A stretch of DNA of 64,000 bases, taken from NCBI GenBank assembly GCA_030704615.1, contig CM060732.1, positions 4,278,001 to 4,342,000 of the forward strand. The letters are read 5' to 3'. Under the pieces are notes generated by a model. It was not told the origin of the DNA and ran no database searches. It saw nothing but the letters and a program-made list of their open reading frames with translations. The stretch's first letter is position 1. The number at the start of each line of letters is the position of its first letter. Shown one piece after another: positions 15,578-52,684 of this stretch. The DNA is from Takakia lepidozioides (taxonomy: Eukaryota; Plantae; Bryophyta). A program made the position numbers and the translations under genes.

Positions 15578-15849
15578 ACCCTCTCTATTCTATGCTCACT
15601 AGAACTACTTACTGTATCAACACTAGTACAGCTTAACGTATGACACACACTGTCACTTATTGCGAACCTGCAGGTACACTCATACCGTGGCTCAAGAAGG
15701 CCCCCTGGACCTTCCTTCGTTGAGAGCCACATTTTGCCAAAGGGAGTGTGCATTAACGGTTCCCGCGCACACCGCGGTGTCTTCGGGCAACCAGCTCCTT
15801 TCCCGCTTTTTCCTTCGCCGCGCTCTCAGTGTCACTCCAGTTGTAGGTC

Positions 15850-19575: not shown

Positions 19576-19799
19576 GAAGAAAGTCAACTTTCGCCGCGAA
19601 GTAGGCGGATGCCGGACCAGAATTGATCACATGTCATTGGGCCCCTCATTGACCACAAGATCACGGTCGCAGGCTCTCCGTAATGGCAGTGCAAATCAAG
19701 CCACAACATCACATCCTTTGTCCTCGGACAGTGACGAACATACTTTCTGTTTTTTGGATGTTACTGTACTCACATGTTTCCTTGTCCTTTTCCTTTGGC

Positions 19800-22700
19800 A
19801 TTTATTCTTCTCATTCAATTTCTCCTGAATTCCTGCCTGAGCAAGCTCTGCCGCTTTCCTGGAGTTCGCAAGCGCTTTTGCCTCTTTTGGACCCAGCGGA
19901 GGCAGCGGAGCCCGGTTTCATCGGGCCTCAGCATCCAGCTTCAATTGAAACTCAGATGGGTCGAGCGAGCCGGGCGGAAGGTCCACATACCAAGGGCAAT
20001 CACGCAAATGTTCTAGATGCCACTCCTTCACAATAACGTCAGTCCCAGGGTTCCTCCATGCCAGGAAGAATGGTGGCTCGAAAGACAGATGACCTTTCTC
20101 CAAAAGGGAGAACTTGCAGTACCTGCATTCATGAAAAACACAGAATGAGGTCCCTGAACTGGAAATTCGGCACCATTTTCCTAGGTTGGGGTGGAACTGA
20201 CAGGGCCTAGAACTGGAAAAAAGGCGCCGAATTTCGGTTTTCAGTGCTAGCCACGCTAGGGACAGCCATTTTGGGAGCCCTGAACTGGAAATTCGGCACC
20301 ATTTTCCCAGGTCCGGGCCGGAAATGGCTAAGTCCCTGAACTGACTGGCCCTGGAATTGGAAAAATGGCGCCGAATTTCGGTTTTCGGTGCCAGCCACCC
20401 GAGGGACTTAGCCATTTTGGGAGCCCTGAACTGGAAATTCGGCGCCATTTTCCCAGGTCCGGGCCGAAAATGCCTAAGTCTCTGAACTGACTGGCCCTGG
20501 AATTGGAAAAATAGCGCCGAATTTCGGTTTTCGGTGCCAGCCACCCTAGGGACTTAGCCATTTTGGGAGCCCTGAACTGGAAATTCGGCACCATTTTCCC
20601 AGGTCCGGGCCGAAAATGCCTAAGTCCCTGAACTGACTGGCCCTGGAATTGGAAAAATGGCGCCGAATTTCGGTTTTTCGGTGCCAGCCACCCTAGGGAC
20701 TTAGCCATTTTGGGAGCCCTGAACTGGAAATTCGGCGCCATTTTCCCAGGTCCGGGCCGAAAATGCCTAAGTCCCTGAACTGACTAGCCCTGGAATTGGA
20801 AAAATGGCGCGGAATTTCGGTTTTCGGTGCCAGCCACTCTAGGGACTTAGCCATTTTGGGTGCCCTGAACTGGAAATTCGGCGCCATTTTCCCAGGTCCG
20901 GCCCGAAAATGGCTAAGTCCCAGAACTGACTGGGCCTTGAACTGGAAAAATGGCGCCGAATTTCGGTTTCGGTGCCAGCCACTCTAGGGACTTAGCCATT
21001 TTGGGTGCCCTGGACTGGAAAATTCGGCGCCATTTTTCCAAGGACCAATTTTTATGCGCCACATGAGGCCTCTAACATCCTGAAATGCAAGGACTTGAAA
21101 GGAAGGCATCGCGTATGTACCTGTACAGAAGGCGCATTGCTGCTTTGTCCGCGTTTGGCTGGTCGATGAACTCGTGGCTCCGGCGGGCATGGGGTATCTC
21201 CCGAAAGAATAGGTCGGTTTTGTACAGCAGAAAGTACCTCGTCACATAGTCGCGTAGGCTCTCTGCTGCAGGAGAAATCTCCATCTTGAACTGATGTGCT
21301 TGTGTGTCCAGCTGCTCTTGCGCATTCGTCGTCACATGTGGAGATTCTCCATCAGATCGCTTTCCTGAAAAAATACAATGAATCCACCCCCTACAAGAGT
21401 AGAAGCGCCAAACGAAGCGTGGGGAAGCACCTGAAACCACCATGTCATGCGGTTCATCCACATGTCGAATGTCGGGTCAGACAGTTTGTCCGGTTTGGGG
21501 AAGCTCCACATGTCCCTTGTACTTTGGGAACCATTCCAGATTTGGAGCCACCGGGTCTGTCCAACCACCCAGCATATTCGTAAGCGCCAAACACCACAAA
21601 AACGAGTTGTTGCCACCACAATTTGGTTAAGAATGTATCACCTTTTCTGTTGCATCCACACAGGATGTGGCTAGACGATGGAGCTTCTCCAATGTCATCG
21701 TGGGCTTCAGAGCGCGGGAGTAGTGCTTCCCCACCTCCACCAGAAAGTCGGCACCAAGGGCGGGATCAGCTATGGCCACGTACTTTACCATCCGCGACTT
21801 GTACTTTATGCGGGCCCTGGCCTCCGCAGCTTTGAGATACGATTCGAGTGTCGGGAGGGTTAGATTCTTCTCCTCTGACTCCATGTAGAACCTCCGCGCA
21901 TGTGCCAAATCCTGCTGAATTTTCGTCTGTCAAGAATGCACACATAAGATTAGAGATCCTGCTCAACGCTTTTTCTTCTATTGGGGGAGGAGAGACAGAT
22001 TAGCTCAACAAAACAGTCAGGAGCTTTACCCGAAATATGTAGTCCACCATGGCGTCCATGCTCAGCCTATACCAGGTTCTGTCTGCCTTTGCCTCCGACT
22101 TGCGCAGAGGTCGGCACTGAGCAAATTGGCAAACTCTTGCACCCCCTGCTTCCCGACATCCTTCACTCGGAAGAGCATATGGGACAAGTTGGTGGCAATG
22201 AAGGCATTCTTAGTCACCCTGCAATGCCACATTTCCATCAAACAATACTGAAATGGGAATTTTGAACAAATATGAGGATTCGCAATGAAATGACTTACAA
22301 ATTTTGGGTCCAAAAGCAAGAGGCGTTGTAACTTACGAGTTGATGTCCGCCATTGCAGCTTTGAGAAGACTGCGATCTTTGGGCCCCGCAACCTTCAGCA
22401 CAACACACTCCACGGCGAAATGCCAATCGAGGTCGTTGTGGTGGGCTTCGGCTATGTGCTCCATCCATGCCAGGAGGCGATGATTGCCGTCCCACACGTA
22501 AAACATCTTTCCGGACAAGTGCTGGAAAAGAGGATCAGTAGCAATCGATCTCTCGAACTCCTCATTTCGCCTTTGCCAATGGGGACCCCATTTGTCCACC
22601 TCATCGGAAGTGTGGGCACGGGAAGCTCCGTGGTCGTTCTCAATGGAAACGTAAAACGCGGCAGACCCCATTCGATATCCATCCCGGAAAGAGAATTTCA

Positions 22701-24486
22701 GCTTGTCGATATCGCCTGGGAGGGCAGGTCTCACCACCTGCAATGACACAAGCGGCAAAGGGGAATTCGAAGCTTGGCCGGGTACACCATGCCCCCAGCA
22801 CCCTGCCAATGTTGTTGTGGGTTGCCTCCAACATCTTGGCAGCGGCCAACTTCATATCCGCCTCCGACATGACGTCTGATGTAGAGGGGTTCTCCGGCAG
22901 CCCACCAGGACCGCCAAATCCAGCCTGTATGCTGCGGGTTTGGGGCCTGGGGATGTCCGGGAGGATGTCATCCTGGTCAGAAAGCTCGGTGTCGTCCTCC
23001 TCAACATGGTCAACCACCCGGCGAAACCACCTCGAGCACTCTCCCCGTCTCTACTGCCCTCTCGCCCTCCCCCGGCTTCACCTTGAACTTGCACAATCCG
23101 TGCTCTTTGTGGTGTTCTTTCCTCTCCTCCACTCTCCACCGTATGGGTAATTGCGGGGGCTCTTGTCCGCGATGGTGTAACCGGTGTGTTACTGCCTCTT
23201 TGTGGTGTCTTGGAGGGATCCACCGTCTCTGTGCGTCCCTCGCTTACATGGGCATCTGTCATTTCGGCACCCCTGGCCTCTTCAGTGGCTTTTTCTCTTT
23301 CCTCCTGGCTAGCCTTCTGTCTCGCCTGTTCTTTTGCCCTCTCTTTTGCCCTCTCACGGGCTTTCGTTTCTTACTAGGGCTATCAGCAGGGGAGCCCTCC
23401 AGGACGACCACCTTTGATTGAGGAGAACTGACACCCTCGCGCGCACTGCTCACTCCCCCTCCGCACCCCGTGACGGCTCTCTCGCCGGGGATTGCATGTG
23501 CTTGGCTTTCTTCTTCTTCTTTGCGTGGGCGGGCCCTACTGCATGTGCGTTTCGGGAGATAAGAAAAAAGTGTGAAAGGGGAAAAAAATCAACAACCTCC
23601 ATTGCCGGATCTGCTGTCCTCACGTCCTCACGCCCTTCACCTGCCATGCCGCCTGCACCAACCTCCCAATGCCTATTCTGTCGTACTCTCGCTGCAGGTC
23701 CTCCCGTCCACCAACAAAAGGTTTTAGTTTCCCCTCCCGCCCCAAGTTGGGCGATCCAAACATGCGATGAGTTGGAGCTGTCGATGATACCACCACAGCG
23801 TGCCGCTCGTTCGTCACTCACTCTGTCATTTCTGAAAATCGTGAGAACCAACATCGGAATGAAAACCACCATCGCAACAATCGTGGAACAACAATGAAAA
23901 CAAAACAAAACCAAGTATGGAGTGGCATGGAACAACAATGAAAACAAATCCAACCAATGCCTAAGAATGACATGCACAAGCAGCCTTCTCAAGAGATGCC
24001 GGCTTTGCACACGCATTGCAAACTATCTAAGGTTCACTCAACCGGTAACATGAAACACGATGAACAAATGAACACGAATTCCATAAGACGGGAAAACAGG
24101 GTGAAATGTTTTGAAGGCACTTCATCTGCTCAGACAATCTTCTCAGCTCAGCATGGATTGCCTTAATTTTTAACCACTCTGACCTTGATCATTCTTCTCA
24201 ACAGCTCCTGCTTTTGCGATGCAACCATACGCTTCCACGATGCCAGGCTGAAGATGCGAAAACAAACCAAAAAACGAAGTAAACAAACAAGCAAAAGCGG
24301 AAGTGGCTTGCCTGGGAGTACTCGGCTTCAGTTGGCGCGGGTTGTGAGCAGACACTGAATCTCCTGCTGGAGCTTAAGTTTGGCCATGCGAGAGGTTGGC
24401 CGTCGCCCGTAGTACAAAGCCTTCAACTTCCACCGCGGTCTGGATGTGGGGTCTCTCTCAGGAGAGCCATGCCCTCCACGCGGCAT
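19800..24486 (-). pseudogene. ParB/Srx-domain multi-exon gene, copy A (MTase exons lost by truncation)
   Basis: VRPALPGDIDKLKFSFRDGY..FYVWDGNHRLLAWMEH..AMADIN; phase-compatible introns 22219-22336, 21927-22029 and 20123-21120; basic AKKKKKAK NLS-like motif; putative ATG at 24486. Confidence 0.82.
20150..21040. repeat. Intronic tandem array, 146-bp monomer with internal dyad (type 1)
   Basis: GGGACTTAGCC recurs at 20403, 20549, 20696, 20842 and 20987; each unit holds inverted GAAATTCGGCGCCATTTT/AAAATGGCGCCGAATTTC and GGGACTTAG/CTAAGTCCC pairs. Confidence 0.95.
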
Positions 24487-24694
24487 AAGTCCCAGCAAAA
24501 GAAAAAAGATCTCAGTATTTTTGCGTACATGCCTCGAATAGAACTTCATCCAAGTTTAGCATCAGGGTTCCAAGACGTATCGAGGAAGCAAGCGCGGAAT
24601 CCCTGTGTCGCCATCACGAATCAAAACCGACGGCGGAGGACATTTAATGCCCAACTACGCAATTAAATGTCGAATGAAGTATGACGCAACGAAG

Positions 24695-25340
24695 CCCTCG
24701 GCGCCGAATTCCCATCCGCTAGGTAAGTCGGAGCGCCGAATTTCCGTCATGCAGGTAATTCGAAGAGCGGATGGATAGAAATCCGGCGCCGAATTTCCAT
24801 CCGCCAGGTAACTCGGAGCGCCGAATTTCCGTCATGCAGGTAATTCGGAGAGCGGATGGATGGAAATCCTGCCCCGAATTTCCATCCTGCAAGTAACTCG
24901 GAGCACGGATGGATGGAAATCCGGCGCCGGATTTCCATCAAGCAGGTAACTCGGAGCGCGGCCGGATGGAAATTCGGCGCCGAATTTCCATCCGCCAGGT
25001 AAGTCGGAGCGCGGATGGATGGAAATCCGGCACCGAATTTCCGTCCGTCAGGTAAGTCGGAGCGTCGTCTTTCCGTCATGCAGGTAATTCGGAGAGCGGA
25101 GGGATGGAAATCCGGCGCCGAATTTCCATCCTGCAAGTAATTCGGAGCAAGGATGGATGGAAATCCGGCGCCGAATTTCCGTCATGCAGGTAATTCGGAG
25201 CGCGGCCGGATGGAAATCCGGCGCCGGATTTCCATCAAGCAGGTAACTCGGAGCGCAGCCGGATGGAAATTCGGCGCCGAATATCCATCCGACAGGTAAG
25301 TCGAAGCGCCGAATTACCATCCTGCAGGTAATTCTGAGAG
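24695..25340. repeat. Promoter-region palindromic array (type 2)
   Basis: Repeated GATGGAAAT(C/T)CGGCGCCG(A/G)ATTTCCATC plus CAGGTAA(T/G/C)TCGG modules; perfect 32-bp palindrome at 24963-24994. Confidence 0.93.
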
Positions 25341-25479
25341 TGGCCGCTTGGTTTTTTGGTCTAAAAAGACACTAAAACCTTAAGTTTGGTGGCTGAATCC
25401 ACTTTTATACACGTTTTTCAGGGAATTCTCGACTGGTAGAGAGAAATTCCTTGCTTCTTTTCCATCCCTCTTAGTTCCT

Positions 25480-26030
25480 ACATGGAAATTCGTTGCCGAA
25501 AAATCTGGCCGCGATTGCGATTACATGCCGAATGGAAGTTCGGCGCCGGTTTTCCATCTGGCCGCGATCGCGATTACCTGCCGAATGGAAATTCGGCGCC
25601 GGTTTTCCATCCGGGGGATGTTCTTTGTCGGACAGGTGCCGGCCTCTCCGCCCGAGGCGACTTCATCCGGGCGGCCCCTGTTGGATATTCGGTGCCGAAT
25701 TCCCGTCCGGGTTTGTAATGTGACGGCCATGTGCCGACCTCTCCCCCCGAGCCGACTACATCCGAACGGCCCCGGATGTAAATTCGGCGCCGTTTTTCCA
25801 TCCAGGGAGGTTTTTATGTCGGCCACTTTTCGGCCTGACCCCCCGACACGACTTCGTTTGGGGGGGCCCGGATGGAAATTCGGCGCTGAATTTCCATCCG
25901 GGGGATGTTCTCAGTCGGACAAGTGTCGGCCTCTCCGCCCGAGTCGACTTCATCCGGGCGGCCCTATTGGATATTCGGTGCCAAATTTCCATCCGGGGTT
26001 GTAATGTGACGGCCCGGTGCCGGCTTCTCC
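25480..26030. repeat. Palindromic array upstream of the transposase (type 3, ~96-bp subunits)
   Basis: Repeated GGATGGAAATTCGG(C/T)GCCG..TTTCCATCC separated by GC-rich linkers; expanded homolog at 46130-47050. Confidence 0.88.
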
Positions 26031-26295
26031 CCTTCAGCCGACATCATCCGGGCGGCCCCCCACTTTCTGACTGCATACCGTTGGCAGTTATTGCGCAAAG
26101 ACCAGGGGCCGCATTCCGGAGACAAGGTTCATTAACACTCTGACTGTGGATTTTTGAGATAGTTGGCTCCCTGGATTTGGATCAGGCTTCGTCGCTCGGA
26201 CAAATCGGCACCGCATTCCTTCCCATCGGTGCATCCCCCTTCTACCAGGGAGCTTGCCCGCACGCCATCCTGGCAGTCTTGTGTGCACATCTCCC

Positions 26296-29200
26296 ATGGC
26301 GGAAAATCCGAGCGCTACAGTGTACTGCCCTCCTCACGAGCATAGAGCTTCATTTCCGTGCAGAGGGGACATCTGCCGTGTGATGGAGAAATATTTGTGC
26401 ATTCGTTACCACCTGAAACCGGGGTCGGTTTTTTTGGAGGAGGAAAGGAAGGACTCAAACGGCGTTGTTGTCGAGAGTATTGTTGTGCTCCACGATGATT
26501 TCGGCGATGGCAGGGAATGGCGAGTTCCACCATCGGACAACGTCATATATAGGGCTGTTGGGGACTTCATTTGCCCGCCAAATGCACCTTCTATCCTGGC
26601 GTCTTCCACGAAACAATCCGCGAATCAGAGAGTGGGTACCTCAAAGAGAGAAGTCCGCAACGAAGTAAATCCAGAGCCCAACCCATCAATGAAGACGAGC
26701 GAGAACCGGGTTGTTCACAACCTGTCCGACTCCAACGAGGTCATGGAAGTTCCGAGATCGTCCTGGAGATCAGGCAAGTCCTCAATGGACGTCAGTGGAC
26801 GAGGGAGTCATATTCCCAGCACGAGCACCGCAGTTCGATCCATTCTTGAAATTCTGCAAGGGCTTCACATGGATGGACACCGCTCGGAGCTGGCTGGGCT
26901 GGACTACAGCAAGTTCACAATTAAATCGGTTACATGCCTTCCCGCAGACGTCGACGGTAATATCTTCTTTGAGTTCCCTCCTCGGACGGACTACTCGAGG
27001 GCGTCCGGAATGTTGACAGATATGGATAGAAAACATGACGTTCATCCTTGGTGTGTCACCAAAACCACCAGCATGAAGATGCTCGATGGTGTGCGGATAC
27101 GCTACGTTGTTTGTGCGGGCGCGTTGCGGTGTTTCTCCCCAACTTGCTTCCATTTTAAATCCAGAGGTCACAGGAACGAGACCGATTGGACAGGCACAGC
27201 TCATCAACCATTTCGAGCTCAGGAGAAGGTTCCGAACTCCACATTTAAGTGTGCGCATTGCAAAGAACCACCACACTGCATGTCTGTTTGTAATGCCAAG
27301 CAGTTCTATGTGTTGCACCATTTCCCTGACCTCACCCGAGCTTGCATACACGTTTGGTTCCCATTGTCACAAATTGGCAAGGGGGAACTCGTGGGAGGCT
27401 GCCCACGAGGCAGAGCAGCTCATTCAGGAGGAGGTTAAGTTGAGACCGGGTGCCAAACCCAAACAGATACAGCTCCAAGCCGCCCATAAGATCGCATTGG
27501 CCAGAATTATGTCGGAAGACGGCTCCGATAGAGTTCCTCTCGATGACAAGGAAATGGAGGCATTGCTGGAGTCGGTGTCCCACGTCTGTTCACCGAATGT
27601 CCGAAACCACATTGTCTCATGCAAACAGAAAATTGGGCGTGGCTCGGATATGCACTCCATTCTGGAGGTGAAGCGACGATGTGGATATGACTACATTCAT
27701 GGAAGTAGGTTTCCAGGACAAGGGACTGAGGCAGATCGTTGTTTCATATTCAAAATGTCCACGTGTGGACCTGGCAGCGGCGTCCAACTGGTCGACAGGA
27801 TGACGAGTGGGGACTTGTCAAACAGTTGGGTCATGTTCGACCATATCAAGCGAATTACAAATCACCAGTGGGTGACAATGGGTGCACATGTCTACGACAC
27901 CCACTGCAGGATGCTAATGACAATTGCTATTTGTGAGATGAAAGGAGAGGACACACAATTGGAGATGCTTCTTTGGCAGGGAATAAACGAACAGATGGCC
28001 AAGGCGGGATTGACCCCTCCCAATTTCCGTGGTTTCATGGCGGACAACGCACAAGCAAATTGGGCTGCCATCCGAAGGGTGTACGGGCAAGACCCCAATG
28101 TTCCCATGGAAGGCAAGGAGAGATCTTGTGGGTTCCATTTTCTGCAGAGCCTTTCGCAGTACACAACCAAGCTCGTGGCGCCAGATTTCAGAGAGGAGCA
28201 CCGTTCCATGTGTCTTGCGTGGAAGCGCGCTCCCACCTTGGATGATGCAGAGACACAGTTTGCATGTATACGGGCTTGGTGGACATCGTCAGGTGCTGTA
28301 AGGAAATCAGACGAGGGAGCAATGGTCAGTTGGCTAGCATGGTGGCATTATCGTTTCCTCCAGTTCGGCGACTATATGCGGGAGGTGAGTTGCACGAATT
28401 CGCGTCCCGTTGAATATTATTCTTGGCATTATTTGTAATTTGCTTCTAACCTCAACATGTGCTTGTGCAGGAAATGTGTCTCGACTCCGACACCGACATG
28501 CCCACGACAAACATGGCCGAATCAGTGCATTCTTCCTGGCGTGCCTCCTCTGCGGCGCATCTGGTGGACATCCTTACTGCCACAACGGAGGACATTGTGA
28601 GGTCAATTATGCAGCAATGCAGGTACAACGAGTTCTTGAAAGGGAAACAGTGGGGCTTGGGGCCGGACAGGCAGGAAATGCTGATGCGGACTGCCTCCAG
28701 ATCAAAGAATCCTCAGAAGTGGACGGCGGCCTTACGAGAGGGCCTTCGGGACACGCCATTGCTTCGAAGAGGCCAACATTTGGAAGGAGATGTTCATACC
28801 TGTCCAGCGAGACGAAGACTTGACGAGGCACCTGGCGGGGAAGAGGATTCATGGCGAGCTGACAAAAATATTTGCACGCTCCCTCGTGGTCCTGTGATGT
28901 TGCCCGAGGAGGTCTCGTCGAGCACCGCAAGTCCTGCACGTTCAAGATCGCCATCTCCTTTGAGCACAGGGCACGTGCCCGGGCAACATAACGAGCCATC
29001 TGTAGTAAAGCAGTACAACATTCCCATTGTGGAGACAAGAGTGTCGGAGTCACAGTGGAGGATTACAAGGACATTGTCGGCATTTCGAGGGAAGTGCTGC
29101 GCCATTCGGGTGGATACGAGAGCACGCTGTGGTGAGATAATTCGGAGGAACCCACACAGTGCTGTACCTGCACCTTGTTTCAGCGGCAGATTTTTGACTC

Positions 29201-29889
29201 TCACATTTGCTCACGCCACAATGCAAACGTTTTGGTTCTGTAGGCACGACATAATGACCTGTGTATTTGGCAAGCCCAAGTACGGGATTCAGGGAATGCC
29301 GGAGCCTCCGGGTGTCTGGCCTGTTGCACTAGGTTGCAGCCTCTCTCAGAATGAGGCAGATGCTCTATCTGCAGCAGGATTTTGAATGGTGCAACGCACA
29401 GACGTCCCGGCCCACGCATTTCCAGTTCCTCAGACCCAGCCATTGCAGACTGCTCGGTCCAGTAGAGACGGATTGGACAATTCTGCACATCCCACAATGC
29501 GATTCGGAAGAGTGAAGAGACGACACCCTCCCAACAAGTTGAATGAGACTCAGATTGCCAATGCTCTTGGGATGGCTTGCACTATTCAGAGCTCCGTGGA
29601 CGTACCTCCACCCGGCCTTGGGCGTGTTTATCGGATGGCAACGGCCGGCTCGGCTGTACGCGACGATGTATACACAATTACGATTAGAGTGGAGCCGACT
29701 TGCAATTGTACGGACTTCTCGTTGATCGAAGCAAAAAAGGGTTCAAAGTATTATCCGTGCAAGCATCTGTATTACATTTACCTGAAGAGGTTGAGGATGA
29801 ACGTGACTATTGATGACTTTATTCATGCACCGGCGTTGAGCGTGAACGAGCTGCACAAACTCCTCCTTAGGGATTCTAGAAATCATTGA
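26296..29889 (+). pseudogene. Mutator-like transposase (GCM/WRKY-like Zn finger, MULE DDE, C-terminal SWIM), near full length
   Basis: ATG at 26296; CAGALRC..C..CAHC..C..GSHCH; FDHIK, FMADNAQANWAAI, CGFH, TTNMAESVHS; CNC..CKH SWIM; phase-0 intron 28385-28470; one frameshift near 27355 and one in-frame TGA at 29383. Confidence 0.9.
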
Positions 29890-30039: not shown

Positions 30040-30350
30040 CATTTCTGGAAAAATGGCGCCGAATTTCTCTATTTTGGGCCGAAAACTGGCTAAGTCCCAA
30101 CATGCAGTGGTACCCCTGTGTTTGGAAAAATGGCGCCGAATTTCCCTATTTTGGGCCGAAAACTGGCTAAGTCCGAACATGCACGGGAACGATGTCTGGA
30201 AAAATGGCGCCTTACACACCTGTCATGAGGGGACCTATAGCCACGGTATTCGGCACCATTTTTCGCCAGAGAGACCTATTACCGCGAAATACGTCGCGGT
30301 TTTTTCCGGTTACGGACCCTATTACCGCGAAATTCGGCGCCATTTTTGCA
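30040..30350. repeat. Subterminal degenerate copies of the AAAATGGCGCCGAATTTC motif
   Basis: Four to five copies between the transposase stop and the right terminus. Confidence 0.75.
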
Positions 30351-30542: not shown

Positions 30543-30590
30543 CCGCTCATGCCGCTCATGCCGCTCATGCTCATGAAATAGCTAACCTCC
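30543..30590 (-). repeat. Right terminal inverted repeat of the element
   Basis: Reverse complement GGAGGTTAGCTATTTCATGAGCATGAGCGGCATGAGCGG matches the left terminus at 38528 (GGGGGCTGCTATTTCATGAGCGGCATGAGCATGAGCGG). Confidence 0.8.
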
Positions 30591-33462: not shown

Positions 33463-33584
33463 CTGGTTGGACAATCACAGCTGATGAGCAGGTGAGAGAA
33501 GTGAATGTGGGAATTGAAGAGGAACCGAGGATGGTGAAGGTAGGGGCTGATTTGGAGCCATAATTCTTTGAGGAAGCTAAGAGT

Positions 33585-38528: not shown

Positions 38529-38749
38529 GGGGGCTGCTATTTCATGAGCGGCATGAGCATGAGCGGAAAAAAAAAAAGCATGAGCAGACCATTGTGAATC
38601 CACGGAAATAGGGTTAGGAGGCACGGAAATAGGGTCATGTGAAGTTGGAATGTGGCACCAGTGGACTTGAAATGCATCATTTTATTGCAAATTTTGTGGC
38701 AAACCACGTCTATACAAGTGTGTTCTAACTGTCATATCCGGAATGGGCA

Positions 38750-41700
38750 CTACTCTCCTACACCCTCCGAGGAACTTGCCCCACCTTCTTCCTCATCCCC
38801 CTCATCCCCCTCATCCTCCGAGCTCTGTGATGCATCAGTTCCACTATGCCTCTCAAAAATCCCATCCTCTCCTTGGGGGACTGTCCACCTCACCTCCTGG
38901 GAATCTTCTGCGTCTTCTCCCCCACTTTCCTCAACAGAATCCAAGACAAATCTACGAGCCCGACGGGCTCTAATAGCTGCTGCCTCCTCCCTCATCTTCA
39001 TTTTCTTGAGGCTTGCCTCGTCTAAAATCTGTTGTACACGACTAGGTTCGGAACACCTCCTAATGGACACCGAAGCAAGTGGGGCAGCATAAGTAGGAAG
39101 GATGTACTTCCTTTTTGGACTAGGCATGAAATCCCCCCTGGCAAAAAAAGACACGTTCCTCCTGCCCATGAACTCCGGTGTAGACGTCCCTCCGGCAGTA
39201 CTTGGCATCCTACAGTAAGAACAAATCCACTTCAAGAATGTCAATACCAGCACAACCAGAAAGGGTTTTTCAATGAAATAAGAGAGCGGAGGGAGGTGCC
39301 TCACAAAATTTGGAGGCAACTTACAATGCCACCACTCACTCATAAACCGGGGGCTCCTCGGCCTCAATCCCAACTTCCTCCCCCTGCTCCTTCTCGGATT
39401 TTTTCCTCATCCTCCAGGATGCCTCTTCCTCTTTCGGCAGACGTTCAGCCGCTGCAAGTTCCGAGTTGTGGAGGGCAGTATCTGGCTCGAAGGCGAACAC
39501 ATGCCTGTCGAACAACGTCCCTGCCCACATTGAAGCACCTGAGGAACAAAGCGGGCGGGTTAATAGCTTGCGGCATGCAATTGCAATCGGGCCAGGGGAC
39601 AAACTGAGCACGTGAAGGCTTACCCGTGCCGCATGTGAGGTCCAGAATCCGCCCTTGGACATCCGAGCACGTCTCCATGAGGGTTTGGATGAAAGCAGGG
39701 CTCCGGGTCCGGCTGTACCGCCACGGTTTGCCTGTCTTTGTGTCCTTCGGCATACTGGAGTGGGGCACATAGTTGTAGAGGACATTGTAGGTTACAGGGT
39801 CCACAGCGGGCATCAACAAGACGACCGTCGTTGCGGAATTTGAACGTAGACCCTCTCTTCACAAAGCAATATGCCTCAAACACCAATGTCTGCACATCCA
39901 GCAAAGAAGGGATCAACCAGGGTCTACTTAACATACACCACAATATGAAGTGAATGCAATAGATTGATAACTTACACTTTGGCCCTCTGTTCGCAACCCC
40001 TGTGTACTGATGCAGAACCATTTTCTTGAGGAGGACGGGGGGTGACACTTTTCGGTGTCCACCTTGCCACCGCATTCTCTGTGGTCTTCCCTCTCGTGGC
40101 AAGGACAACCACACATCCACCCGTCATCCAGAAGCATCCCCACCAGCCCAAAACCCGGCTTTCCAGTGGTCCTCAGTAAACCTGTTCCAGGTGGGCACAC
40201 CATCCAGGCCCTCCAGCCAGCTCCCCATCTGGAATGTCGAGGAGAATCATGTCGCAAGCTCTCTCCACCTCAACCCACCCCGAGTGCTCTTGCAATCTGT
40301 GCTCACAGCCGTGAAGAATTCCATCATGGCTTCAAAACCAGGGGTGTCTTTAGGCTCTGTACTGCCAGCTATCTTCTTGGCTTTCCCCTTCTGCTCCGCC
40401 AGAGAGACTTGCTGTGTGCCACCTTTTTCGCCCTGGCAGCGAGAGCGTCAAGGAAGCTCTCATTGACGCATTGGATGATGGTTGGAGGTTCTAGCTTGGC
40501 CTGTGCGTAAACGTCACCGCCAATAACCGTCGGTAGGCTCGCCACAAATGCCAACTATTAGGCAACGCCCTCAACTGCCAACTTCTGACTTGGGACCCCA
40601 CTCCCAACAGGACCAAACCCGACGACCGGGTTGACTGGGTAGGAGCAACAGCAGTCGCAGGACCTTGAACAAAGTCGTCGTCCGAGTCACTCTCTTGGGT
40701 CCTCCTGAGGCCTCCTCCGATGCCCCGATGGTTTTCCTTCTTTTGGGGTGTTACTTGCACTCACTGTTTCCTTTGTCCATTTGCCTTTGGCCTTACTCTT
40801 CTATGCAAATCCTAATTCTGAAGATTCGCTTTCTGCCAGCAACTCGCAAGCGCTTTTGCCTCTTTTGCAACACGGCATCCAACCTAGCCATCTGTCCCAA
40901 GGTCCCTTACGCAGATGCCTTTTCCATCTGCCTTCTCTGTTCTCGGCAAGCGGAGCTGAGCCAAGTCTGCGTTCGGTCGCAAGAATTCAGCATCCAAGTC
41001 CTTCAATTGCAAAGCTCAATCCGTAAGACAGAAGATGGGTCGCGAGCGAAGCTGGGCGGAAGGTCCACATACCAAGGAATCACGCAAAATGCTCAGATGC
41101 CACTCCTTCACAATATCGTCAGTGTACATGGAATCAGCCCAGGGTTCCTCCATGCCAGGAAGAAATGGTGGCTCGAAAGACAGATGACCTTTCTCCAAAA
41201 GGGAGAACTTGCAGTACCTGCATTCATGAAAAACACAATGAGGTCCCTGAAATGCATATTCGGCACCATTTTCCCAGGTTGGGGCGGATGTGAGTGGGCC
41301 TAGAAATGGAAAAATGGCGCCGAATTTCGGTTTTCGGTGACTGCCACCCTAGGGACTTAGCCAATCTTGGGAGCCCTGAACTGGAAATTCGGCGCCATTT
41401 TTCCCGTTTGGCCCGAAGATGGCTAAGTCCCAGAACCGCAATAGGGCCTAGAACTGGAAAAATGGCGCCGAATTTCCAGTTCAGGGCCAGCCACCCTAGG
41501 GACTTAGCCCGAAAATGGCTAAGTCCCTGAACGGCAATAGGGCCTAGAACTGGAAAAATGGCGAAGAATTTCCAGTTCAGGGCCAGCCACCCTAGGGACT
41601 TAGCCCGAAAATGGCTACGTCCCTGAACGGCAATAGGGCCTAGAACTGGAAAATGGCGCCGAATTTCCACTTCAGGGCCAGCCACCCTAGGGACTTAGCC

Positions 41701-44700
41701 CGAAAATGGCTAAGTCCTGAACGGCAATAGGGCCCGGAACTGGAAAATGGCGCCGAATTTCCAGTTCAGGGCCAGCCAGTCTAGGGACTTAGCCCGAAAA
41801 TGGCTAAGTCCCTGAACGGCAATAGGGCCTAGAACTGGAAAATGGCGCCGAATTTCCAGTTCCGGGCCAGCCAGTCTAGGGACTTAGCCCGAAAATGGCC
41901 AAGTCCCTGAACAACAATAGGGCCTAGAACTAGAAAATGGTGCCGAATTTCCAGTTCAGGGCCAGCCAGTCTAGGGACTTAGCCATTTTCGGAGCCCTGA
42001 CTGGAAATTCGGCGCCATTTTCCCTAACACCACATGAGGCCTCTAACATCCTGAAATGCAAGGACTTGAAATAAAGGCAGCGCGTATGTACCTGTACAGA
42101 AGGCGCATTGCTGCTTTGTCCGTGTTCGGCTGGTCGGTGAACTCGTGGCTCCGGCGAGCATCTGCTATCTCCCGAAAGAATAGGTTGGTTTTGTAGAGCA
42201 GAAAGTACCTCGTCACATAGTCACGTAGGCTCTCTGCTGCAGGAGATATCTCCATCTTGAACTGATGTGCTTGTGTGTCCAGCTGCTCTTGCGCATTCGT
42301 CGTCACCTGTGGAGATTCTCCATCAGATCGCTTTCTTGAAAAAAATACAATGAATCCACCCCCTACTAGAGTAGAAGCCCCAAATGAAGCGTGGGGAAGT
42401 ACCTGAAACCACCATGTCATGCGGTTTCATCCACATGTCGAATGTGGGGTCAGAGAGTTTGTCCGGTTTGGGGAAGCTCCACATGTCCCTGGTATTTGGG
42501 AACCATTCCAGATTTGGAGCCACCGGGTCTGTCCAACCACCCAGCATATTCGTAAGCGCCAAACACCACAAAAAGGAGTTGTTGCCACCACAATTTGGTT
42601 AAGAATGTATCACCTTTTCTGTTGCATCCACACAGGATGTGGCTAGATGATGGAGCTTCTCCAATGTCATCGTGGGCTTCAGAGCGCGAGAGTAGTGCTT
42701 CCCCACCTCCACCAGAAAGTCGGCACCAAGGGCGGGATCAGCTATGGCCACGTACTTTACCATCCGCGACTTGTACTTTATGCGGGCCCTCACCTCCGCA
42801 GCTTTGACATACGATTCGAGTGCCGGGAGGGTTGGATTCTTCTCCTCTGACTCCATGTAGAACCTCCGCGCATGTGCCAAATCCTGCTGTATTTTCGTCT
42901 GTCAAGAATGCGCACATAAGATTAGAGATCCTGCTCAACAATTTCTTCTATTGGGGGAGGAGATTAGAAATCACGGTGAAGACCTTTTCTTCTATTGGGG
43001 GAGGAGAGACAGATTAGCTCAACAAAACTGTCAGGAGCTTTACCCGAAATATGTAGTCCACCATGGCGTCGACGCTCAGCCTATACCAGGTTCTGTCTGC
43101 CTTTGCCTCCGACTTGCGCAGGAGGTCGGCACTGAGGGAATTGGCAAACTCTTGCACCCCCTGCTTCCCGACATCCTTCACTCGGAAGAGCATATGGGAC
43201 AAGTTGGTGGCGATGAAGGCATTCTCAGTCACCCTGCAGTGCCACATTTCCATCAAACAATACTGAAATGGGAATTTTCATTATATATGAGGATTCGCAA
43301 TGAAATGACTTCCAAATTCAAAGTCCAAAAGCGAGAGGCGTTGTAACTTACGAGTTGATGTCCGCCATTGCAGCTTTGAGAAGACTGCGATTTTTGGGCC
43401 CCGCAACCTTCAGCACAACACACTCCACGGCGAAATGCCAATCGAGGTTGTTGGGGTGAGCTTGGGCAATGTGCTCCATCCATGCCAGGAGGCGATGATT
43501 GCCGTCCCACACGTAGAACATCTTACCGGACAAGTGCTGGAAAAGAGGATCACTAGCAATCGATCTCTCGAACTCCTCATTTCGCGTTTGCCAATGGGGA
43601 CCCCATTTGTCCACCTCATCGGAAGTGTGGGCACGGGAAGCTCCGTGGTCGTTCTCAATGGAAACGTAAAACGCGGCAGACCCCATTCGATATCCATCCC
43701 GGAAAGAGAATTTCAGCTTGTCGATATCGCCTGGGAGGGCAGGTCTCACCACCTGCAATGACACCAAGCGGCAAAGGGGAATTCGAAGCTTGGCCGGGTA
43801 CACCATGCCCCCAGCACCCTGCCAATGTTGCTGTGGGTTGCCTCCAACATCTTAGCAGCGGCCAACTTCATATCCACCTCCGACATGACGTCTGCTGCAG
43901 AGGGGTTTTCCGGCAGCCCACCAGGACCGCCAAATCCAGCCTGTATGCTCCGGGTTTGGGGCCTGGGGATGTCCGGGAGGATGTCATCCTGGTCAGAAAG
44001 CTCCCTGTCGTCCTCCTCAACAGGGTCAGCCACCTGCGAAACCACCTCCAGCACTCTCCCCGTCTCTACTGCCCTCTCCCTGGCTTCACCTCGAACTTGC
44101 ACAATCCGTGCTCTTTCTGGTGTTCTTTCCTCTCCTCCACTCTCCACCGTATGGGTAATTGCAGGGGCTGCTCTTGCCGCGATGGTCTAACCGGTGTGTT
44201 GCTGCCTCTTTGTGGTGTCTTGGAGGGATCCACCGTCTCTGTGCGTCCCTCACTTACATGGGAATTTGTTCGTTCGGAACCCCTGGCCTCTTCAGTGGCC
44301 TTTTCTCTTTCCTCCTGGCTAGCCTTGTGTCTTGCCTGTTCTTTTGCCATCTCTTTTGCCCTCTCACGGGCTCTCTGTTTCTTATTAGGACTAGCAGCAA
44401 GGGAGCCCGGATGGACGACCACCTTTGAGGTAGGCGAATTGACACCCTCGCGCGCACTGCGAACTCCCCCCTCCGCAGCCCGTGACGGCTCTTGCGCCGG
44501 GGATTGCACGCGCTTGGCTTTCTTCTTCTTCTTTGCTTGGACGGGCCCTACTGCTTCTGCATCAACAACCTCCATTGCCGGATCTGCTGTTCTCACTTCC
44601 TCACGCCCTTCACCAACCTCCCCAATGCCTATTCTGTCGTACTCTCGCTGTAGGTCCTCCCGTCCACCAACAAAAGGTTGAAGTTTGCCCTCTCGCTCCA

Positions 44701-45295: not shown

Positions 45296-45499
45296 AAGTC
45301 CCAGCCAAAATGGAAAAAGATCTCCGTTTTTGGGGTACATGCCTCGAATAGCATGTTAAGCCAAGATTAGCATCAGATTTAGGGTACGTATCCAGGAAGC
45401 CATGTGTCGCCAGCCCGAATGAAAACGGACGGCGGTGGACATTTATTGCCCAACTGCGCAATTAAATGTCGGATGAAGCCCTCCATGTCGGATGAAAAA

Positions 45500-46010
45500 C
45501 GACGGAACTCGGCCCGGAATTTCCAACGTAGAGGTAATTCAGAGCGCTGCAGGATGGAAATCCGGCGCCGGATTTCCATCCTGCAGGTAATTCGGAGCGC
45601 AGCAGGATGGAAACTCAGCGCCGAATTTCCATCCTGCAAGGTAGGGCGGCGCGCAAAATTTCCCTCACGCAGGTAATTCAGAAGCAGATGGATGGAAATC
45701 CGGCGCCGAATTTCCATCCGCGCAGGTAGGACGGCGCGCGAAATTTCCCTCACGCATTTAATTCCGAAGCGCATGGATGGAAATCCGGCGCCGGATTTCC
45801 ATCCGCAAGGTTGGTTGGAGAGCGGATGGATGGAAATCCGGCGCCGAATTTCCATCCTGTAGGTAATTCGAATCCCGGATGGATGGAAATCCGGCGCCGA
45901 ATTTCCATCCAGCAGGTAAGTCGGATCGCTGGCGTATGGATATTTGGCGCCGAATTTCCATTCGCCAGGTATTTTGAAGCGCTGAATTACCTTCCTGCAG
46001 GTAATTCTGA
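45500..46010. repeat. Type 2 palindromic array, copy B
   Basis: Repeated GGATGGAAATCCGGCGCCG(G/A)ATTTCCATCC and CAGGTAA modules. Confidence 0.92.
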
Positions 46011-46129
46011 GCGTGTCCGATTGATTTTTCGGAGAAAAACAAACTAAACTGTTTGTTTTGTGGCTGAAGTGCACTTGTAGACACGTTTTTCTTGGAATCC
46101 TTGACTGCTAGAGGCAAATCGGAACAGCC

Positions 46130-47050
46130 TCGGACGGAAATTCGGCGCCGTTTTTCCATTCTGGGAGGTTTTGACGACTTCCTTTGAGGGGGCGGGATGG
46201 TCTCTGTCGGAGAGGTGCCGGCCTCTCCGCCGCTCTGTTGGATATTCGGTGCCGAATTTCCGTCCGGGGGTTGAGATATGACGGCCAGGTGCCGGCATCT
46301 CCCCCCTCCCCGACTGCATTGGAACGGCCCCGGATGGAAATTCGGCGCCGTTTTTCCATCTGAGGAGGTTTTTATGTCGGCCAGTTTTCGGCCTGACCCC
46401 CCGAGACGACTTCATTTGGGGGGGCCCGGATGGAAATTCGGCGCCGAATCTTCATCCAGGGGATGCTCTCTGTTGAACACGTGCCGGCCTCTACGCGCGA
46501 GGCGACTTCATCCGGGCGTCCCCTGTTGGATATTCGGTGCCGAATTTCCGTCCGGGGGTTGAAATGTGACGGCCAGGTGCCGGCCTCTCCCCCCTCCCCG
46601 ACTGCATCCGAACCGCCCGGATGGAAATTCGGTGCCGTTTTTCCATCTGGGGAGGTTTTATGTCGGCCAGTTTTCGGCCTGACCCCCCGACACGACTTCC
46701 TTTGGGGGGGCCCGGATGGAAATTCGGCGCCGAATCTCCATCCAGGGGATGTTCTCTGTCGCACACGCGCCGGCCTCTGCGCCCGAGGCGACTTCATCCG
46801 GGCTTCCCCTGTTGTATATTCGGTGCCGAATTTCCGTCCGGGGGTTGTAATGTGAGGGCCAGATGGATCCTTTGGGGGGATCCGAATGGAAATTCGGCGC
46901 TGAATTTCCATCCGGGGGATGTTCTCTGTCGGACAAGTGCCGGCATCTCTGCCCCAGACGACTTCATCCGTGCGGCCCCTGTTGGATATTGGGTGCCGAA
47001 TTTCCATTCGGGGGTAGTAATGTGACGGCACGGTGCCGGCTTCTCCCCTT
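46130..47050. repeat. Type 3 palindromic array, copy B (~96-bp subunits, ~286-bp higher-order repeat)
   Basis: ATGTCGGCCAGTTTTCGGCCTGACC at 46374 and 46660; palindromic cores roughly every 92-101 bp. Confidence 0.9.
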
Positions 47051-47132
47051 CAGCCGACATCATCCGGACGGCCCCCCACTTTCTGACTGCATACCGTTGG
47101 CAGTTATTGCGCAAAGACCAGGCACATCTCCC

Positions 47133-47819: not shown

Positions 47820-49515
47820 GAGGCCATTTCTGGAAAAATGGCGCCGAATTTCTCTTTTTGGGGCCGAAAACTGGCTAAGTCTTCGGCACCATTTTCCTAG
47901 GTTGGGCCCGAAAATGGCTAAGTCCCAGAACTGACTGGGCGCGGAACTAGAAAAATGGCGCCGAATTTCCGGTTGCGGTTCCAGCCACCCTAGGGACTTA
48001 GCCATTTTCGGGGCCCTGAACTGGAAAAATGGCGCCATTTTTCCATTACGGGGCTGAAAATGGCTAAGTCCCAGATCTGACTGGGCCTGGAACTGAAAAA
48101 ATGGCGCCGAATTTCCGATTTTGCTGCCAGCCACCCTAAGGACAGCCATTTTCGGCCCCGAACTGGAAAAATGACGCCATTTTTCCAGTTCGGGGCCAAA
48201 AATGGCTAAGTCCCAGATCTGACAGGGCGCGGAACTGGAAAAATGGCGCCGAATTTCCGGTTGCGGTTCCAACCACCTTAGGGACTTAGTCATTTTCGGG
48301 GCCTTAAACTGGAAAAATGGCGCCATTTTTCCATTTCGAGGCCGTAAATGGCTAAGTCCTAGATCTGACTGGGCCTGGAACCGGAAAAATGGCGCCGAAT
48401 TTCCGATTTTGGTGCCAGTCAGATCTGGGACTTAGCCATTTTCGGCCCCGAACTGAAAAAATGACGTTTTTTTTTTTTGTTTTTTTTTTCCGGCGCCATT
48501 TTTCCAGTTCGGGGCCGAAAATGGCTAAGTCCCAGATCTGACTGGGCCCGGAACTGGAAAAATGGCGCCGAATTTCCGATTTTGGTGCCAGCCACCCTAG
48601 GGACTTAGCCATTTTCGGCCCCGAACTGGAAAATGGCGCCATTTTTCCAGTTCGGGGCCGAAAATGGCTAAGTCCCAGATCTGATAGGGCGCGAAACTGG
48701 AAAAATGGTGCCGAATTTCCAGTTGCGGTTCCAGCCACCGTAGGAACTTAGCCATTTTCGGGGCCCTGAACTGGAAAAATGGCGCCATTTTTCCATTTCG
48801 GGGCCAAAAATGGCTAAGTCCCAGATCTGACTGGGCCCAGAACTGGAAAAATGGCGCCGAATTTCCGATTTTGGTGCCAGTCAGATCTGGGACTAAGCCG
48901 TTTTCAGCCCCGAACTGGGAAAATGACGTTTTTTTTTTTTTTTTCTTTTTATTTTTCTTTTTCGGCGCCATTTTTCCAGTTCGGGGCCGAAAATGGCTAA
49001 GTCCCAGATCTGACTGGGCCCGGAACTGGAAAAATGGCGCCGAATTTCCGATTTTGGTGCCAGCCACCCTAGGGACTTAGCCATTTTCGGCCCCGAACTG
49101 GAAAAATGGCGCCATTTTTCCAGTTCGGGGCCGAAAATGGCTAAGTCCCAGATCTGATAGGGCGCAAAACTGGAAAAATGGTGCCGAATTTCCAGTTGCG
49201 GTTCCAGCCACCGTAGGGACTTAGCCATTTTCGGGGCCCTGAACTGGAAAAATGGCGCCATTTTTCCATTTCGGGGCCGAAAATGGCTAAGTCCCAGATC
49301 TGACTGGGCCCAGAACTGGAAAAATAGCGCTGAATTTCCGATTTTGGTGCCAGTCAGATCTGGGACTTAGCCGTATTCGGCCCCGAACTGGGAAAATGAC
49401 GTTTTTTTTTCTTTTTTCTTTTTTCTTTTTCGGTGCCATTTTTCCAGTTTGGGGCCGAAAATGGCTAAGTCCCAGATCTGACTGGCACAAAAATCGGAAA
49501 TTCGGCGCCATTTTT
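47820..49515. repeat. Type 1 array (142-146-bp units, some with poly-T inserts) downstream of the transposase
   Basis: GGCTAAGTCC at 47916, 48062, 48204, 48350 and onward. Confidence 0.93.
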
Positions 49516-49519
49516 CCAG

Positions 49520-50225
49520 TCATGCAAGTAATTCGAAGAGCGGATGGATGGAAATCCGGCGCCGGATTTCTATCCGCCACGTAAGTCGGCGCGCAAAATT
49601 TCCGTCATGCAGGTAAATCGAAGAGCGGATGGATGAAAATCCGGCGCCGGATTTCCATCCTCCAGGTAAGTCGGTGCTACAAATTTCTGTCATGCAGGTT
49701 ACTTGTGAGCGGATGGATGGAAATCCGGCGCATGATTTCCATCCGCCAGGTACAAAATTTCCGTCATGCAGGTAATTCGGAGCGCGGATGGATGGAAATC
49801 CGGCGACGGATTTCCATCCTCCAGGTAAGTCGGTGCGCAAAATTTCCGTCATGCAGGTAATTCGAAGAGCGGATGGATGGAAATCCGGTGCCGGATTTCC
49901 ATCCGCCAGCTAAGTCGGCGCGCAAAATTTCCGTCATGCAGGTAATTCGAAGAGCGGATGGATGGAAATCCGGCGCCGGATTTCCATCCGCCAGGTAGGT
50001 CGACGCGCAAAATTTCCATCATGCAGGTAATTCGGAGCGCAGATGGATGGAAATCCGGCGCCGGATTTCCATCCTCCAGGTAAGTCGGCGCTGCAAATTT
50101 CCGTCATGCAGGTAATTCGAAGAGCGGATGGATGGAAATCCGGCGCCGAATTTCCGTTAGGCAGGTAATTCGGAGGGCGGATGGATGGAAATCCGGCGCC
50201 GGATTTTCATCCGCCAGCTAAGTCG
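49520..50225. repeat. Type 2 array, 85-bp period
   Basis: CATGCA(G/A)GT at 49521, 49606, 49691, 49765, 49850, 49935, 50020 and 50105. Confidence 0.95.
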
Positions 50226-50227
50226 GA

Positions 50228-51530
50228 TGCAAGAAGCATTGTAACTTACGAGTTGATGTCTGTCATTACCGCTTTGAGAAGATTGCGATCTTTGGGCCCC
50301 GCAACCTTCAGCACAACACACTCCACGGCGTAACGCCAATCCAGGTCGTTGGGGTGGGCTTGGGCTACATGCTCCATCCATGCCAGGAGGCGATGATTGT
50401 CGTCCCACACGTAAAACATCTTTCCGGACAAGTGGTGGAAAAGAGGATCAGTAGCAATCAATCTCTCGAACTCCTCATTTCGCCTTTGCCAATGAGGACC
50501 CCATTTGTCCACCTCATCGGAAGTGTGGGCACGAGAAGCTCCATGGTCGTTCTCCATGGAAACGTAAAACGTGGTAGACCCCATTCGATATCCCTCCCAA
50601 AAAGAGAATTTCAGCTTGTCGATATCGCCTGGGAGGGCAGGTCTGACCACCTGCAATGAAACCAGCGGCAAAGGGGAATCCGAAGCTTGGCCGGGTACAC
50701 CATGCCCCCCAGGACCCTGCCAATGTTGCTGTGGGTTGCCTCCAACATCTTGGCAGTGGCGAACTTCATATCCGCCTCCGACATGACGTCTGTTGCAGGG
50801 GGGTTCTCCGGCAGCCCACCCGGACCGCCAAATCCAGCCTATATGCTCCGGGTTTGGGGCCTGGGGATGTCCGGGAGGATGTCATCCTGGTCAAAAAGCT
50901 CCCTCTCGTCGTCCTCAACATGGTCAACCACCGCCGGAACTACCTCCAGCACTCTCCCCGTCTCTACTGCCCTCTCACCGGCTTCACCTCGAACTTGCAC
51001 AATCCGTGCTCTTTGTGGTGTTCTTTCCCCTCCTCCAGTCTCCACCGTATGGGTAATTGCGGGGGCTGCTCCTGCCCGCGATGGTGTAACCGGCGTGTTA
51101 CTGCCTCTTTGTGGTGTCTTGGATGGATCCACCGTTTCTATGCGTCCCTCGCTTACATGGGCATCTGTCATTTCCACACCCCTGGCCTCTTCAGTGGCCT
51201 TTTCTCTTTCCTCCTGGCTAGCCTTCTGTCTCGCCCGTTCTTTTGCCCTCTCTTTTGCCCTCTCACGGGCTTTCTGTTTCTTACTAGGGGTAGCAGTAGG
51301 GGAGCCCTCCAGGACGACCACCTTTGATTGAGGCGAATTGACACCCTCGCGCGCCCTGCTCACTCCCCCCTCCGCAGCCCGTGACGGCTCTCTCGCCGGG
51401 GAATGGCTTTCTTCTTCTTCTTTGCGTGGGCGGGCCCTACTGCATGTGCATCAACATTCTCCATTGCCGGATCTGCTGTCCTCATACGATGTCCTTCACC
51501 TGCCATGCCGCCTGCACCAACCTCCCCAAT
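50228..51530 (-). pseudogene. ParB-gene fragment C (N-terminal and ParB exon)
   Basis: FYVWDDNHRLLAW (G to D change); collinear with 22320-23670. Confidence 0.88.
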
Positions 51531-51649
51531 GAGAATCACGTCCCGGGAATGAGGTTAATGTTTCGTCAAGAAACTGCAAAAATGGTGCCAAATTTCTATG
51601 CGGGGTGGGCCTGATGGTCCCGGTTCCCCGGGGTGCCGTGCAATGAAAG

Positions 51650-52560: not shown

Positions 52561-52684
52561 AGTCACCCCAGGGACTTCGCCATTTCTTCACAACCAATTG
52601 TCATGCCCCACACAAGCCGTTTTACATCCACGAACTCCAGGGACTACAATGGCCACAGATCAAAGAGGAGCACCGCATATTTAC

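Follow-up and report, generated by a model that had tools for sequence, protein, structure and literature searches.

We analysed a 64,000-nt stretch of the Takakia lepidozioides genome (contig CM060732.1, positions 4,278,001 to 4,342,000 of the forward strand), referred to here as the window. It is land-plant nuclear DNA, carrying PPR-DYW and SF3A1/PRP21 genes together with CACTA and Ty3/gypsy remains. Within the window lie four copies of a gene with a predicted ParB/sulfiredoxin (Srx)-type domain, which in its whole form ends in a methyltransferase-like domain. An initial annotation of the window had described the domain as retained in four copies. We found that only one of them is a complete gene and that the other three are partial; all are situated within copies of a Mutator-like transposon, and this is not retention by the host. 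The gene is very probably an accessory gene of that transposon. The remainder of this study sets out the anatomy of the gene and its carrier, the properties of the two domains and of the palindrome arrays that accompany them, and what the encoded protein may do.

Copy 2 (38752..44575, minus strand) is the only whole gene. It has nine exons, about 1,400 codons and many one-base indels, and we found eight GT-AG introns in it rather than the nine or so that had been proposed. Copy 1 (19740..23602, minus strand) begins with an ATG at 23602 and comprises exons 1 to 5 and the start of exon 6; the methyltransferase part and the rest of the 3' part are missing, and the intron-4 acceptor is damaged at 21336. 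Copy 3 (50231..51531, minus strand) is a fragment that includes exon 1. Copy 4 (53923..54837, plus strand) is an inverted, isolated fragment in which exon 2 is largely deleted and which is open from a Met codon at 53934 to 54470. A further fragment (52670..53357, minus strand) holds middle exons without the ParB core. Close to its start codon the gene encodes a basic stretch resembling a nuclear localization signal, AKKKKAK (at 23521 in copy 1 and 44533 in copy 2), in agreement with the initial annotation. The linker that joins the middle region to the methyltransferase in copy 2 (40770-40986) has no coverage in the deepest DNA run, and other contigs have a copy-1-like linker; this linker varies between subfamilies.

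The ParB-like block, SLQVVRP...DIN, is 408 nt (136 codons) long and, as had been reported, is free of stops in all four window copies: at 22746-22339 in copy 1 (minus strand, with the domain starting at about 22790), 43761-43354 in copy 2 (minus strand), 50659-50252 in copy 3 (minus strand) and 54060-54467 in copy 4 (plus strand). The predicted introns at 22336-22219 and 22029-21927 also proved to have exact GT..AG borders. The sequence SVTEN, said to follow the block after the intron, is present in copy 2 only; copy 1 reads SVTKN and copy 4 LVTEN, and copy 3 stops inside the intron. One-base gaps lie just upstream of the block in copies 1, 2 and 3 (at 22748 and 22791 in copy 1), and only copy 4 is open from Met through the domain. 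The base missing at 22748 is present in contigs of all four sequencing runs, and that at 22791 in both of the runs that cover it. Copy 2 has at least 12 one-base indels; the 12 listed are all common to two runs, eight of them fall in homopolymer tracts at least three bases long, and two host genes are unbroken. Because contigs from the sequencing runs carry the missing bases, the family form of the gene is open. The window copies themselves may be either decayed or mis-assembled.

Head-to-head with the accessory gene lies a frameshifted gene (26158..29886, plus strand) with a Cys/His-rich N-terminal part. It contains acidic motifs at 27833, 28034 and 28510, a CxxH at 28127 and a SWIM motif at 29701-29770 (all plus strand), a combination that we take to be that of a Mutator-like DDE transposase. 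The SWIM match, at E 0.003, fell below the cut-off, and searches of the Pfam Mutator-like element (MULE) profiles, the PDB and insertion sequences gave no profile match for this transposase. Over 14 bp, the right terminus of copy 1 (30569..30582, minus strand) and the left terminus of copy 2 (38536..38549, plus strand) are exact inverted repeats of each other; the latter is inserted into a Ty3/gypsy pol, and the two termini come from different copies. MULEs are reported to have terminal inverted repeats of 14-500 bp or none and target-site duplications of 8-11 bp (PMC6446971), and the 14-bp exact termini fall within the published range for the repeats. Summing the parts would give an element of about 13 kb. 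The accessory-gene copies have arrays, flanks and pieces of transposase in common. Copy 2 has cleanly lost about 3 kb from within its transposase, at 47622/47624, and has kept the accessory gene and arrays; given the internally deleted transposase, we regard it as a non-autonomous derivative. Remains of a second, distinct subfamily of Mutator-like transposase were seen at 4724-5663 (minus strand), in two segments with 60-72% identity to P0170, to which the main window transposase is 40% identical. Open reading frames beside these remains (1157-2924, minus strand) had no Pfam match and could be cargo of that element.

To 6.5 kb of copy 2 there mapped 22,456 contigs of a single DNA run, so many divergent copies must exist. 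As related loci we used the best 80 of 128 related stretches in metagenome contigs, which form 56 groups. Twelve distinct related groups had at least 4 kb of upstream sequence. A transposase was located upstream on the opposite strand in seven of the twelve, a same-strand piece in one, and a transposase match downstream in one. The linked partners are highly divergent among loci (26-52% identity for the transposase and 34-72% for the ParB domain), which suggests that their pairing is old.

Selection on the gene was assessed within the window and among the related loci. Pairwise dN/dS between window copies was 0.26-0.47, with 25 nonsynonymous and 17 synonymous changes among the four (p = 0.004), counts in which CG transitions may inflate the synonymous class. 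The comparison suggested in the initial annotation therefore gives a ratio below 1 overall; the internal branch alone, with 6 nonsynonymous and 4 synonymous changes, does not reach significance (p = 0.15). Among the related loci, 79 of 3,160 pairs were usable (dS of 0.05-1 and more than 60 synonymous sites), and dN/dS was below 1 in all 79, with a median of 0.28, the pairs being non-independent. A stop was present in the domain in 43 of the 80 loci. Judged by these substitution patterns, the family is under purifying selection.

Two sequencing runs were guessed to be RNA, no run being recorded as such. Contigs from these runs gave no coverage of the introns at 22336-22219 and 22029-21927, which argues neither for nor against the splicing of those two. 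They did skip intron 4 (the joint can be shifted to 21336-21430) and intron 6 (39890-39975), and intron 5 was skipped together with its array, the loose end at 21117 matching exon 6 when compared by eye. The spliced contigs derive from related copies, other than those of the window, and these related copies are apparently spliced.

Purifying selection and splicing would also be expected of a domesticated host gene kept as a cluster of tandem paralogs, its transposon context being accidental, and 4 of the 12 related loci have no detectable upstream transposase. This explanation is largely refuted, and we consider it very improbable: the copies share arrays, flanks and transposase pieces, the terminus of copy 2 is inserted in a gypsy pol, contigs of one run pile up in their thousands on a few kilobases of copy 2 (22,456 on 6.5 kb), 43 of 80 related loci contain a stop, and two 96%-identical members in Ceratodon bear tags of different chromosomes.

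A search of representative sequences with the ParB-like block returned 436 clusters at E ≤ 0.001, placing the block far beyond chance. A model from a single sequence reached a predicted local distance difference test (pLDDT) score of only 37, and an alignment-based model was used instead. Built with AlphaFold2 from copy 4 and 105 aligned homologs (106 sequences), it had a pLDDT of 93.4. The top Foldseek rows were all Noc, sulfiredoxin, ParB, KorB or PadC (E ≥ 0.016). In a structural scan (VIA wide, 48,161 chains), 13 chains had Z ≥ 2 and all 13 were of ParB/Srx type, the best being KorB (Z 6.9, root-mean-square deviation 2.9, 93 aligned), followed by PadC at Z 6.8. These Z values are middling, yet a competing unrelated fold is absent from the scan. 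Atlas comparison matched the domain to a ParB/Srx cluster (0.94), fungal DUF3723 (0.92) and phage DUF6551 (0.91). About 90 of 151 residues align to the known fold, and the remainder is a conserved insertion with two Trp residues. The domain is thus predicted to be a member of the ParB/Srx superfamily, the fold named in the initial annotation; no different fold was predicted.

Sequence comparison was less informative about the fold. There was no significant profile match to a ParB domain in Pfam or NCBIfam and no relevant one in the PDB; DndB matches were weak (3 of 106 members, best E 0.066, which is below any threshold), and a ParB-like PHROG matched at E 0.28. Conservation across the GxxRxxA region was strong in the 106 aligned homologs, which had not been seeded on it (G in 96, N in 105, H in 96 and R in 92; A in 80 of 105). 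A tally from the 80 related loci was excluded as evidence, since those loci had been seeded on the motif. GxxRxxA had been assigned to all window copies; it is intact in three, and copy 3 has DDNHR instead of DGNHR.

Chromosomal ParB, Noc and KorB share with the plant family the core fold, GxxRxxA and the proximity of palindromic repeats, and their clamps have EN(I/L)QRE as a second CTPase motif (PMC11229316). Unlike them, the plant family lacks EN(I/L)QRE, whose place is taken by M-x-D-I-N (N in 65 of 75) with K-x-x-EN in the next exon, and identity to these proteins is 8-21%. No helix-turn-helix was found in Pfam or the atlas, the two resources searched for it (all atlas rows <0.9), and no ParA partner was detected. 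With EN(I/L)QRE replaced by M-x-D-I-N, we treat the domain as a ParB/Srx member whose status as a CTP clamp is unsupported.

The proposal that the domain is prokaryote- or virus-derived is in keeping with its fold and with the architecture of the protein; the expected prokaryotic or phage sequence relatives were not found. Pattern matches of the ParB domain numbered 0 of 11 for prokaryote genomes and 0 of 85 for viral contigs, and the sequence matches retrieved were one from phages (E 3) and two from plasmids (E 6), all in searches of low sensitivity that do not exclude such an origin. Since no such relative was found, the case for a foreign origin is made by fold and domain architecture, which suggest that the gene may have come from a prokaryote or a virus.

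Among the four window copies, a methyltransferase-like end was found only in copy 2, where a beta-class amino-methyltransferase-like domain occupies 39480..40250 (minus strand), with motif IV (DIPD) at 40238-40227, motif I (DLTCGTG) at 39642-39622 and FEPD at 39491-39480. Motif IV precedes motif I here and in the relatives, which is the beta-class order. This piece alone had no Pfam match, but it matched the family profile at E 3.4e-05. The named relatives come from a moss, a liverwort and ferns. Ceratodon P0006 (1147 aa) and the window gene are colinear all the way from ParB core to methyltransferase, a layout shared by Riccia P0162 (1207 aa), and relatives match PF01555 above the cut-off (30.4 bits in P0006 and 35 bits in P0169). 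In PHROG and the PDB, the plant methylase domain matched beta-class DNA methyltransferases best, and its closest sequence matches were the adenine methyltransferases DpnA (E 0.0045) and CcrM; phage matches were weak, E 0.005 being the best among the matches listed.

Motif IV reads DIPD in the window and DTPF, DQPY, DVPF, DLPT, DYPE, DIPE, NVPG or NIPR in relatives, NVPG and NIPR being weak matches in decayed loci, and DTPF and DQPY the Ceratodon versions. The D/N and P of motif IV, the S-adenosylmethionine (SAM)-binding motif and the acidic residue of the latter are conserved across the moss, liverwort and fern members. On this pattern, methyltransferase activity is plausible in the DQPY and DTPF members and doubtful for the eroded DIPD type of the window. 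Marchantia DN4MT1 (TSPPY; preprint) and rotifer N4CMT (SPPY plus a chromodomain) were considered as counterparts and set aside; their motif is different, and the available parts of their descriptions do not mention ParB. A FastTree tree of 33 domains had the window copies close to the Ceratodon group, with weak support (0.82) and no outgroup, and was not used. P0006 and a second Ceratodon member, P0159, are 96% identical, and their locus tags, in two assemblies, name chromosomes 1 and 4; mobility or paralogy may lie behind this.

The non-coding parts of the element contain tandem arrays with units of 146, 95, 53/85 and 96 bp that share a 22-bp palindrome, GGAAA-N3-GGCGCC-N3-TTTCC. In copy 1, a 146-bp array (20194..21040) lies inside intron 5 (21120-20123), and 53/85-bp and 96-bp arrays (24690..26060) lie between the two divergent genes. 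In copy 2 the intron-5 array has a 95-bp period (41245..42024) and the intergenic arrays are at 45490..47080. A rearranged copy carries 146-bp and 85-bp palindrome arrays (47880..50230), a 146-bp array at 51620..52590 is inverted, and subterminal palindrome copies are present near the right end (30040..30350); none was found near the left terminus in the window. The arrays, 8,002 bases in all, contain 74 occurrences of GGCGCC, against 9 in the remaining 55,998 bases of the window, and 98 of 99 near-matches to the palindrome are in element DNA, which bears out the palindromic repeats anticipated in the initial annotation. Tandem amplification inflates these counts, and the telling point is therefore that arrays of unrelated period keep the same palindrome. 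We regard it as a candidate parS-like site. In related elements the arrays are similarly placed and are built from other units; arrays between divergent starts recur in the related loci L004, L019 and L040.

A candidate parS-like site beside a ParB/Srx-type domain recalls the idea, put forward in the initial annotation, of a ParB clamp that spreads the methyltransferase along the element. In its full form, a nucleotide-gated ParB-type clamp would load at the palindrome and slide, carrying the methyltransferase and writing N6-methyladenine or N4-methylcytosine (6mA/4mC) as a self-mark against host silencing. The idea was not upheld: because EN(I/L)QRE is absent, no helix-turn-helix was found and motif IV is non-canonical, we treat it as hypothetical and think it decidedly unlikely.

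The subterminal palindromes, together with a terminal inverted repeat that is exact over only 14 bp, would suit a different explanation, in which the transposase binds the palindromes and the accessory protein, a nickase or NTPase regulated by nucleotides and without sequence specificity, aids transposition or its repair in the manner of ParB-methylase fusions from phages and plasmids. The ParB-methylase Bce_0392 is reported to nick DNA nonspecifically and Osa to have ATPase/DNase activity (PMC5512222), and the failure to detect a helix-turn-helix in Pfam or the atlas fits a protein of this kind. We consider this rather unlikely, since no palindrome was found near the left terminus, most sites, being intronic or intergenic, are distant from the ends, and in red algae inverted-repeat arrays adjoin the ParB gene (bioRxiv 10.1101/2025.02.11.637652).

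The arrays between divergent starts, in the window as in L004, L019 and L040, would equally suit a transcription regulator. If the methyltransferase were dead throughout the family, the protein could be a nucleotide-sensing regulator of the divergent genes, acting like DndB at its own promoter arrays. The aromatic residue is missing from motif IV in six of nine versions, and besides the weak DndB matches (3 of 106, best E 0.066) the atlas gave 0.77 for the middle region; DndB itself is described as an ATP-dependent negative regulator (PMC10853773). Those matches are below any threshold, however, the D/N and P of motif IV and the SAM motif are kept from moss to fern, and Ceratodon has DTPF and DQPY. 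We hold such a regulator, with an enzyme dead across the family, to be unlikely.

The gene type has already been reported on algal transposons, and the land-plant family is an addition to a known kind. Sola1-1_Ec32 of Ectocarpus encodes one protein with a ParB-like and an N4C/N6A methyltransferase domain, on the strand opposite to the transposase and 1104 aa long against 1147-1207 aa in the moss and liverwort proteins, and was proposed to represent a new class of self-modifying accessory proteins that bind and modify their own element (Dinatale et al. 2025, PMC12477816). The Takakia gene likewise has ParB-like and amino-methyltransferase domains in one protein on the strand opposite to a DNA transposase. 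The likeness is by description only, and the systems differ in host and carrier: a brown alga and a Sola-1 element in one case, land plants and a Mutator-like SWIM transposase in the other; the available sections of that paper give no target motif. Plavaka elements of Bostrychia and other red algae, with their accessory genes PAG2 and PAG3, are also DNA transposons with a ParB-like domain, adjacent inverted-repeat tandem arrays and a PF01555 methylase on the same element, and homologs on Chondrus Mutator elements point to mobility between transposon superfamilies (bioRxiv 10.1101/2025.02.11.637652). There, ParB is fused to a 2-oxoglutarate oxygenase and the methylase to SET, in separate genes, whereas the plant ParB and methylase form one gene. 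A search of the literature gave no paper describing the land-plant family; this is a weak blank, its coverage being incomplete to the point that it missed the Ectocarpus paper itself.

Two further systems bear comparison. VANC of the VANDAL Mutator elements is an accessory gene of a carrier with short termini, and its elements have motif-rich, subfamily-variable tandem repeats in introns and intergenic regions; unlike the present gene, its activity is demonstrated, its motifs are 8-9 bp and non-palindromic, and the sections available mention no ParB or methylase domain (PMC5735166). Phage and prophage ParB-methylase fusions (Bce_0392, ParB-terminase loci) have ParB/Srx N-terminal to an amino-methyltransferase (PMC5512222, PMC4738411), whereas in plants the gene has introns and its protein contains a long middle region and some 45-55 inserted residues, and for the plant ParB domain no sequence-level relative was found in phages, plasmids or prokaryote genomes.

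The reading that we favour, tentatively and as somewhat short of probable, is that the accessory protein binds the palindrome and marks or alters the chromatin of its own element. The protein would likely bind the 22-bp palindrome as a dimer in the non-coding arrays, with nucleotide binding by the DGNHR domain gating loading there and the middle region reading DNA. Where a subfamily has an intact motif IV, the C-terminal domain would write 6mA or 4mC; in eroded types such as DIPD it would serve as a SAM- or DNA-binding module. Marking or occupation of the element DNA would likely alter its chromatin so that an expressible state persists, an effect like the anti-silencing by VANC. The palindrome arrays sit where VANC targets lie, in an intron, between genes and near an end (PMC5735166), which argues for binding, and we also count in its favour that the same proposal has been made for algal elements.

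Several observations weigh on the other side. Every VIA Z value falls short of 8, and E ≤ 0.001 was reached by none of the Foldseek rows. An aromatic motif IV residue occurs in only three of nine distinct versions, none of which has the canonical (D/S/N)PP(Y/F/W) form. Inverted-repeat enrichment was seen in only three of six related-locus arrays and two of four window arrays, and the palindrome could just as naturally be bound by the transposase. The copies bear the imprint of host 5-methylcytosine: transitions per site were 0.123 at CG, 0.099 at CHG and 0.041 at CHH (CG threefold and CHG 2.4-fold over CHH), and in 14 of 79 palindrome sites the central CG has become TG or CA. With CG and CHG transitions enriched and the central CG lost at these sites, protection from methylation would be at best partial. 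To these are added the non-significant internal branch of the window copies and the four related loci without a transposase upstream. CpG observed/expected was 0.57-0.81 in the element against 0.30 in the neighbouring gypsy; full escape of the element from 5-methylcytosine was considered and rejected on the enrichment of CG and CHG transitions.

The transposon cluster adjoins two host genes, an unbroken PLS-class PPR-DYW editing-factor gene (55998-58049, minus strand) and an intact SF3A1/PRP21 gene (59332-61602, plus strand). At its truncated 3' end, copy 1 abuts a broken RING-finger gene (18132-19572, plus strand; Pfam RING E 1e-05, below the cut-off), which has a CACTA transposase (14770-17408) as its neighbour. 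The Ty3/gypsy element spans 31600-38528 and is interrupted by copy 2 at 38528, and an inverted integrase piece (53394-53919) lies between accessory-gene fragments. From 6000 to 10000, G strongly outnumbers C (skew of +0.45 to +0.55 across 3 kb), and the open reading frames tested there had no Pfam match.

These results extend the ParB-methyltransferase accessory class to mosses, liverworts and ferns, groups in which a 2015 survey recorded few adenine methyltransferases (PMC4738411). The defined 22-bp candidate site, together with the evidence for selection and splicing, makes the idea of self-modification testable. If it is true, plants would have in this family a DNA writer that is directed by sequence and may spread, and plant repeats would have a source of 6mA or 4mC; if the clamp reading were also true, the family would be a eukaryotic ParB-parS system turned to epigenetic writing.

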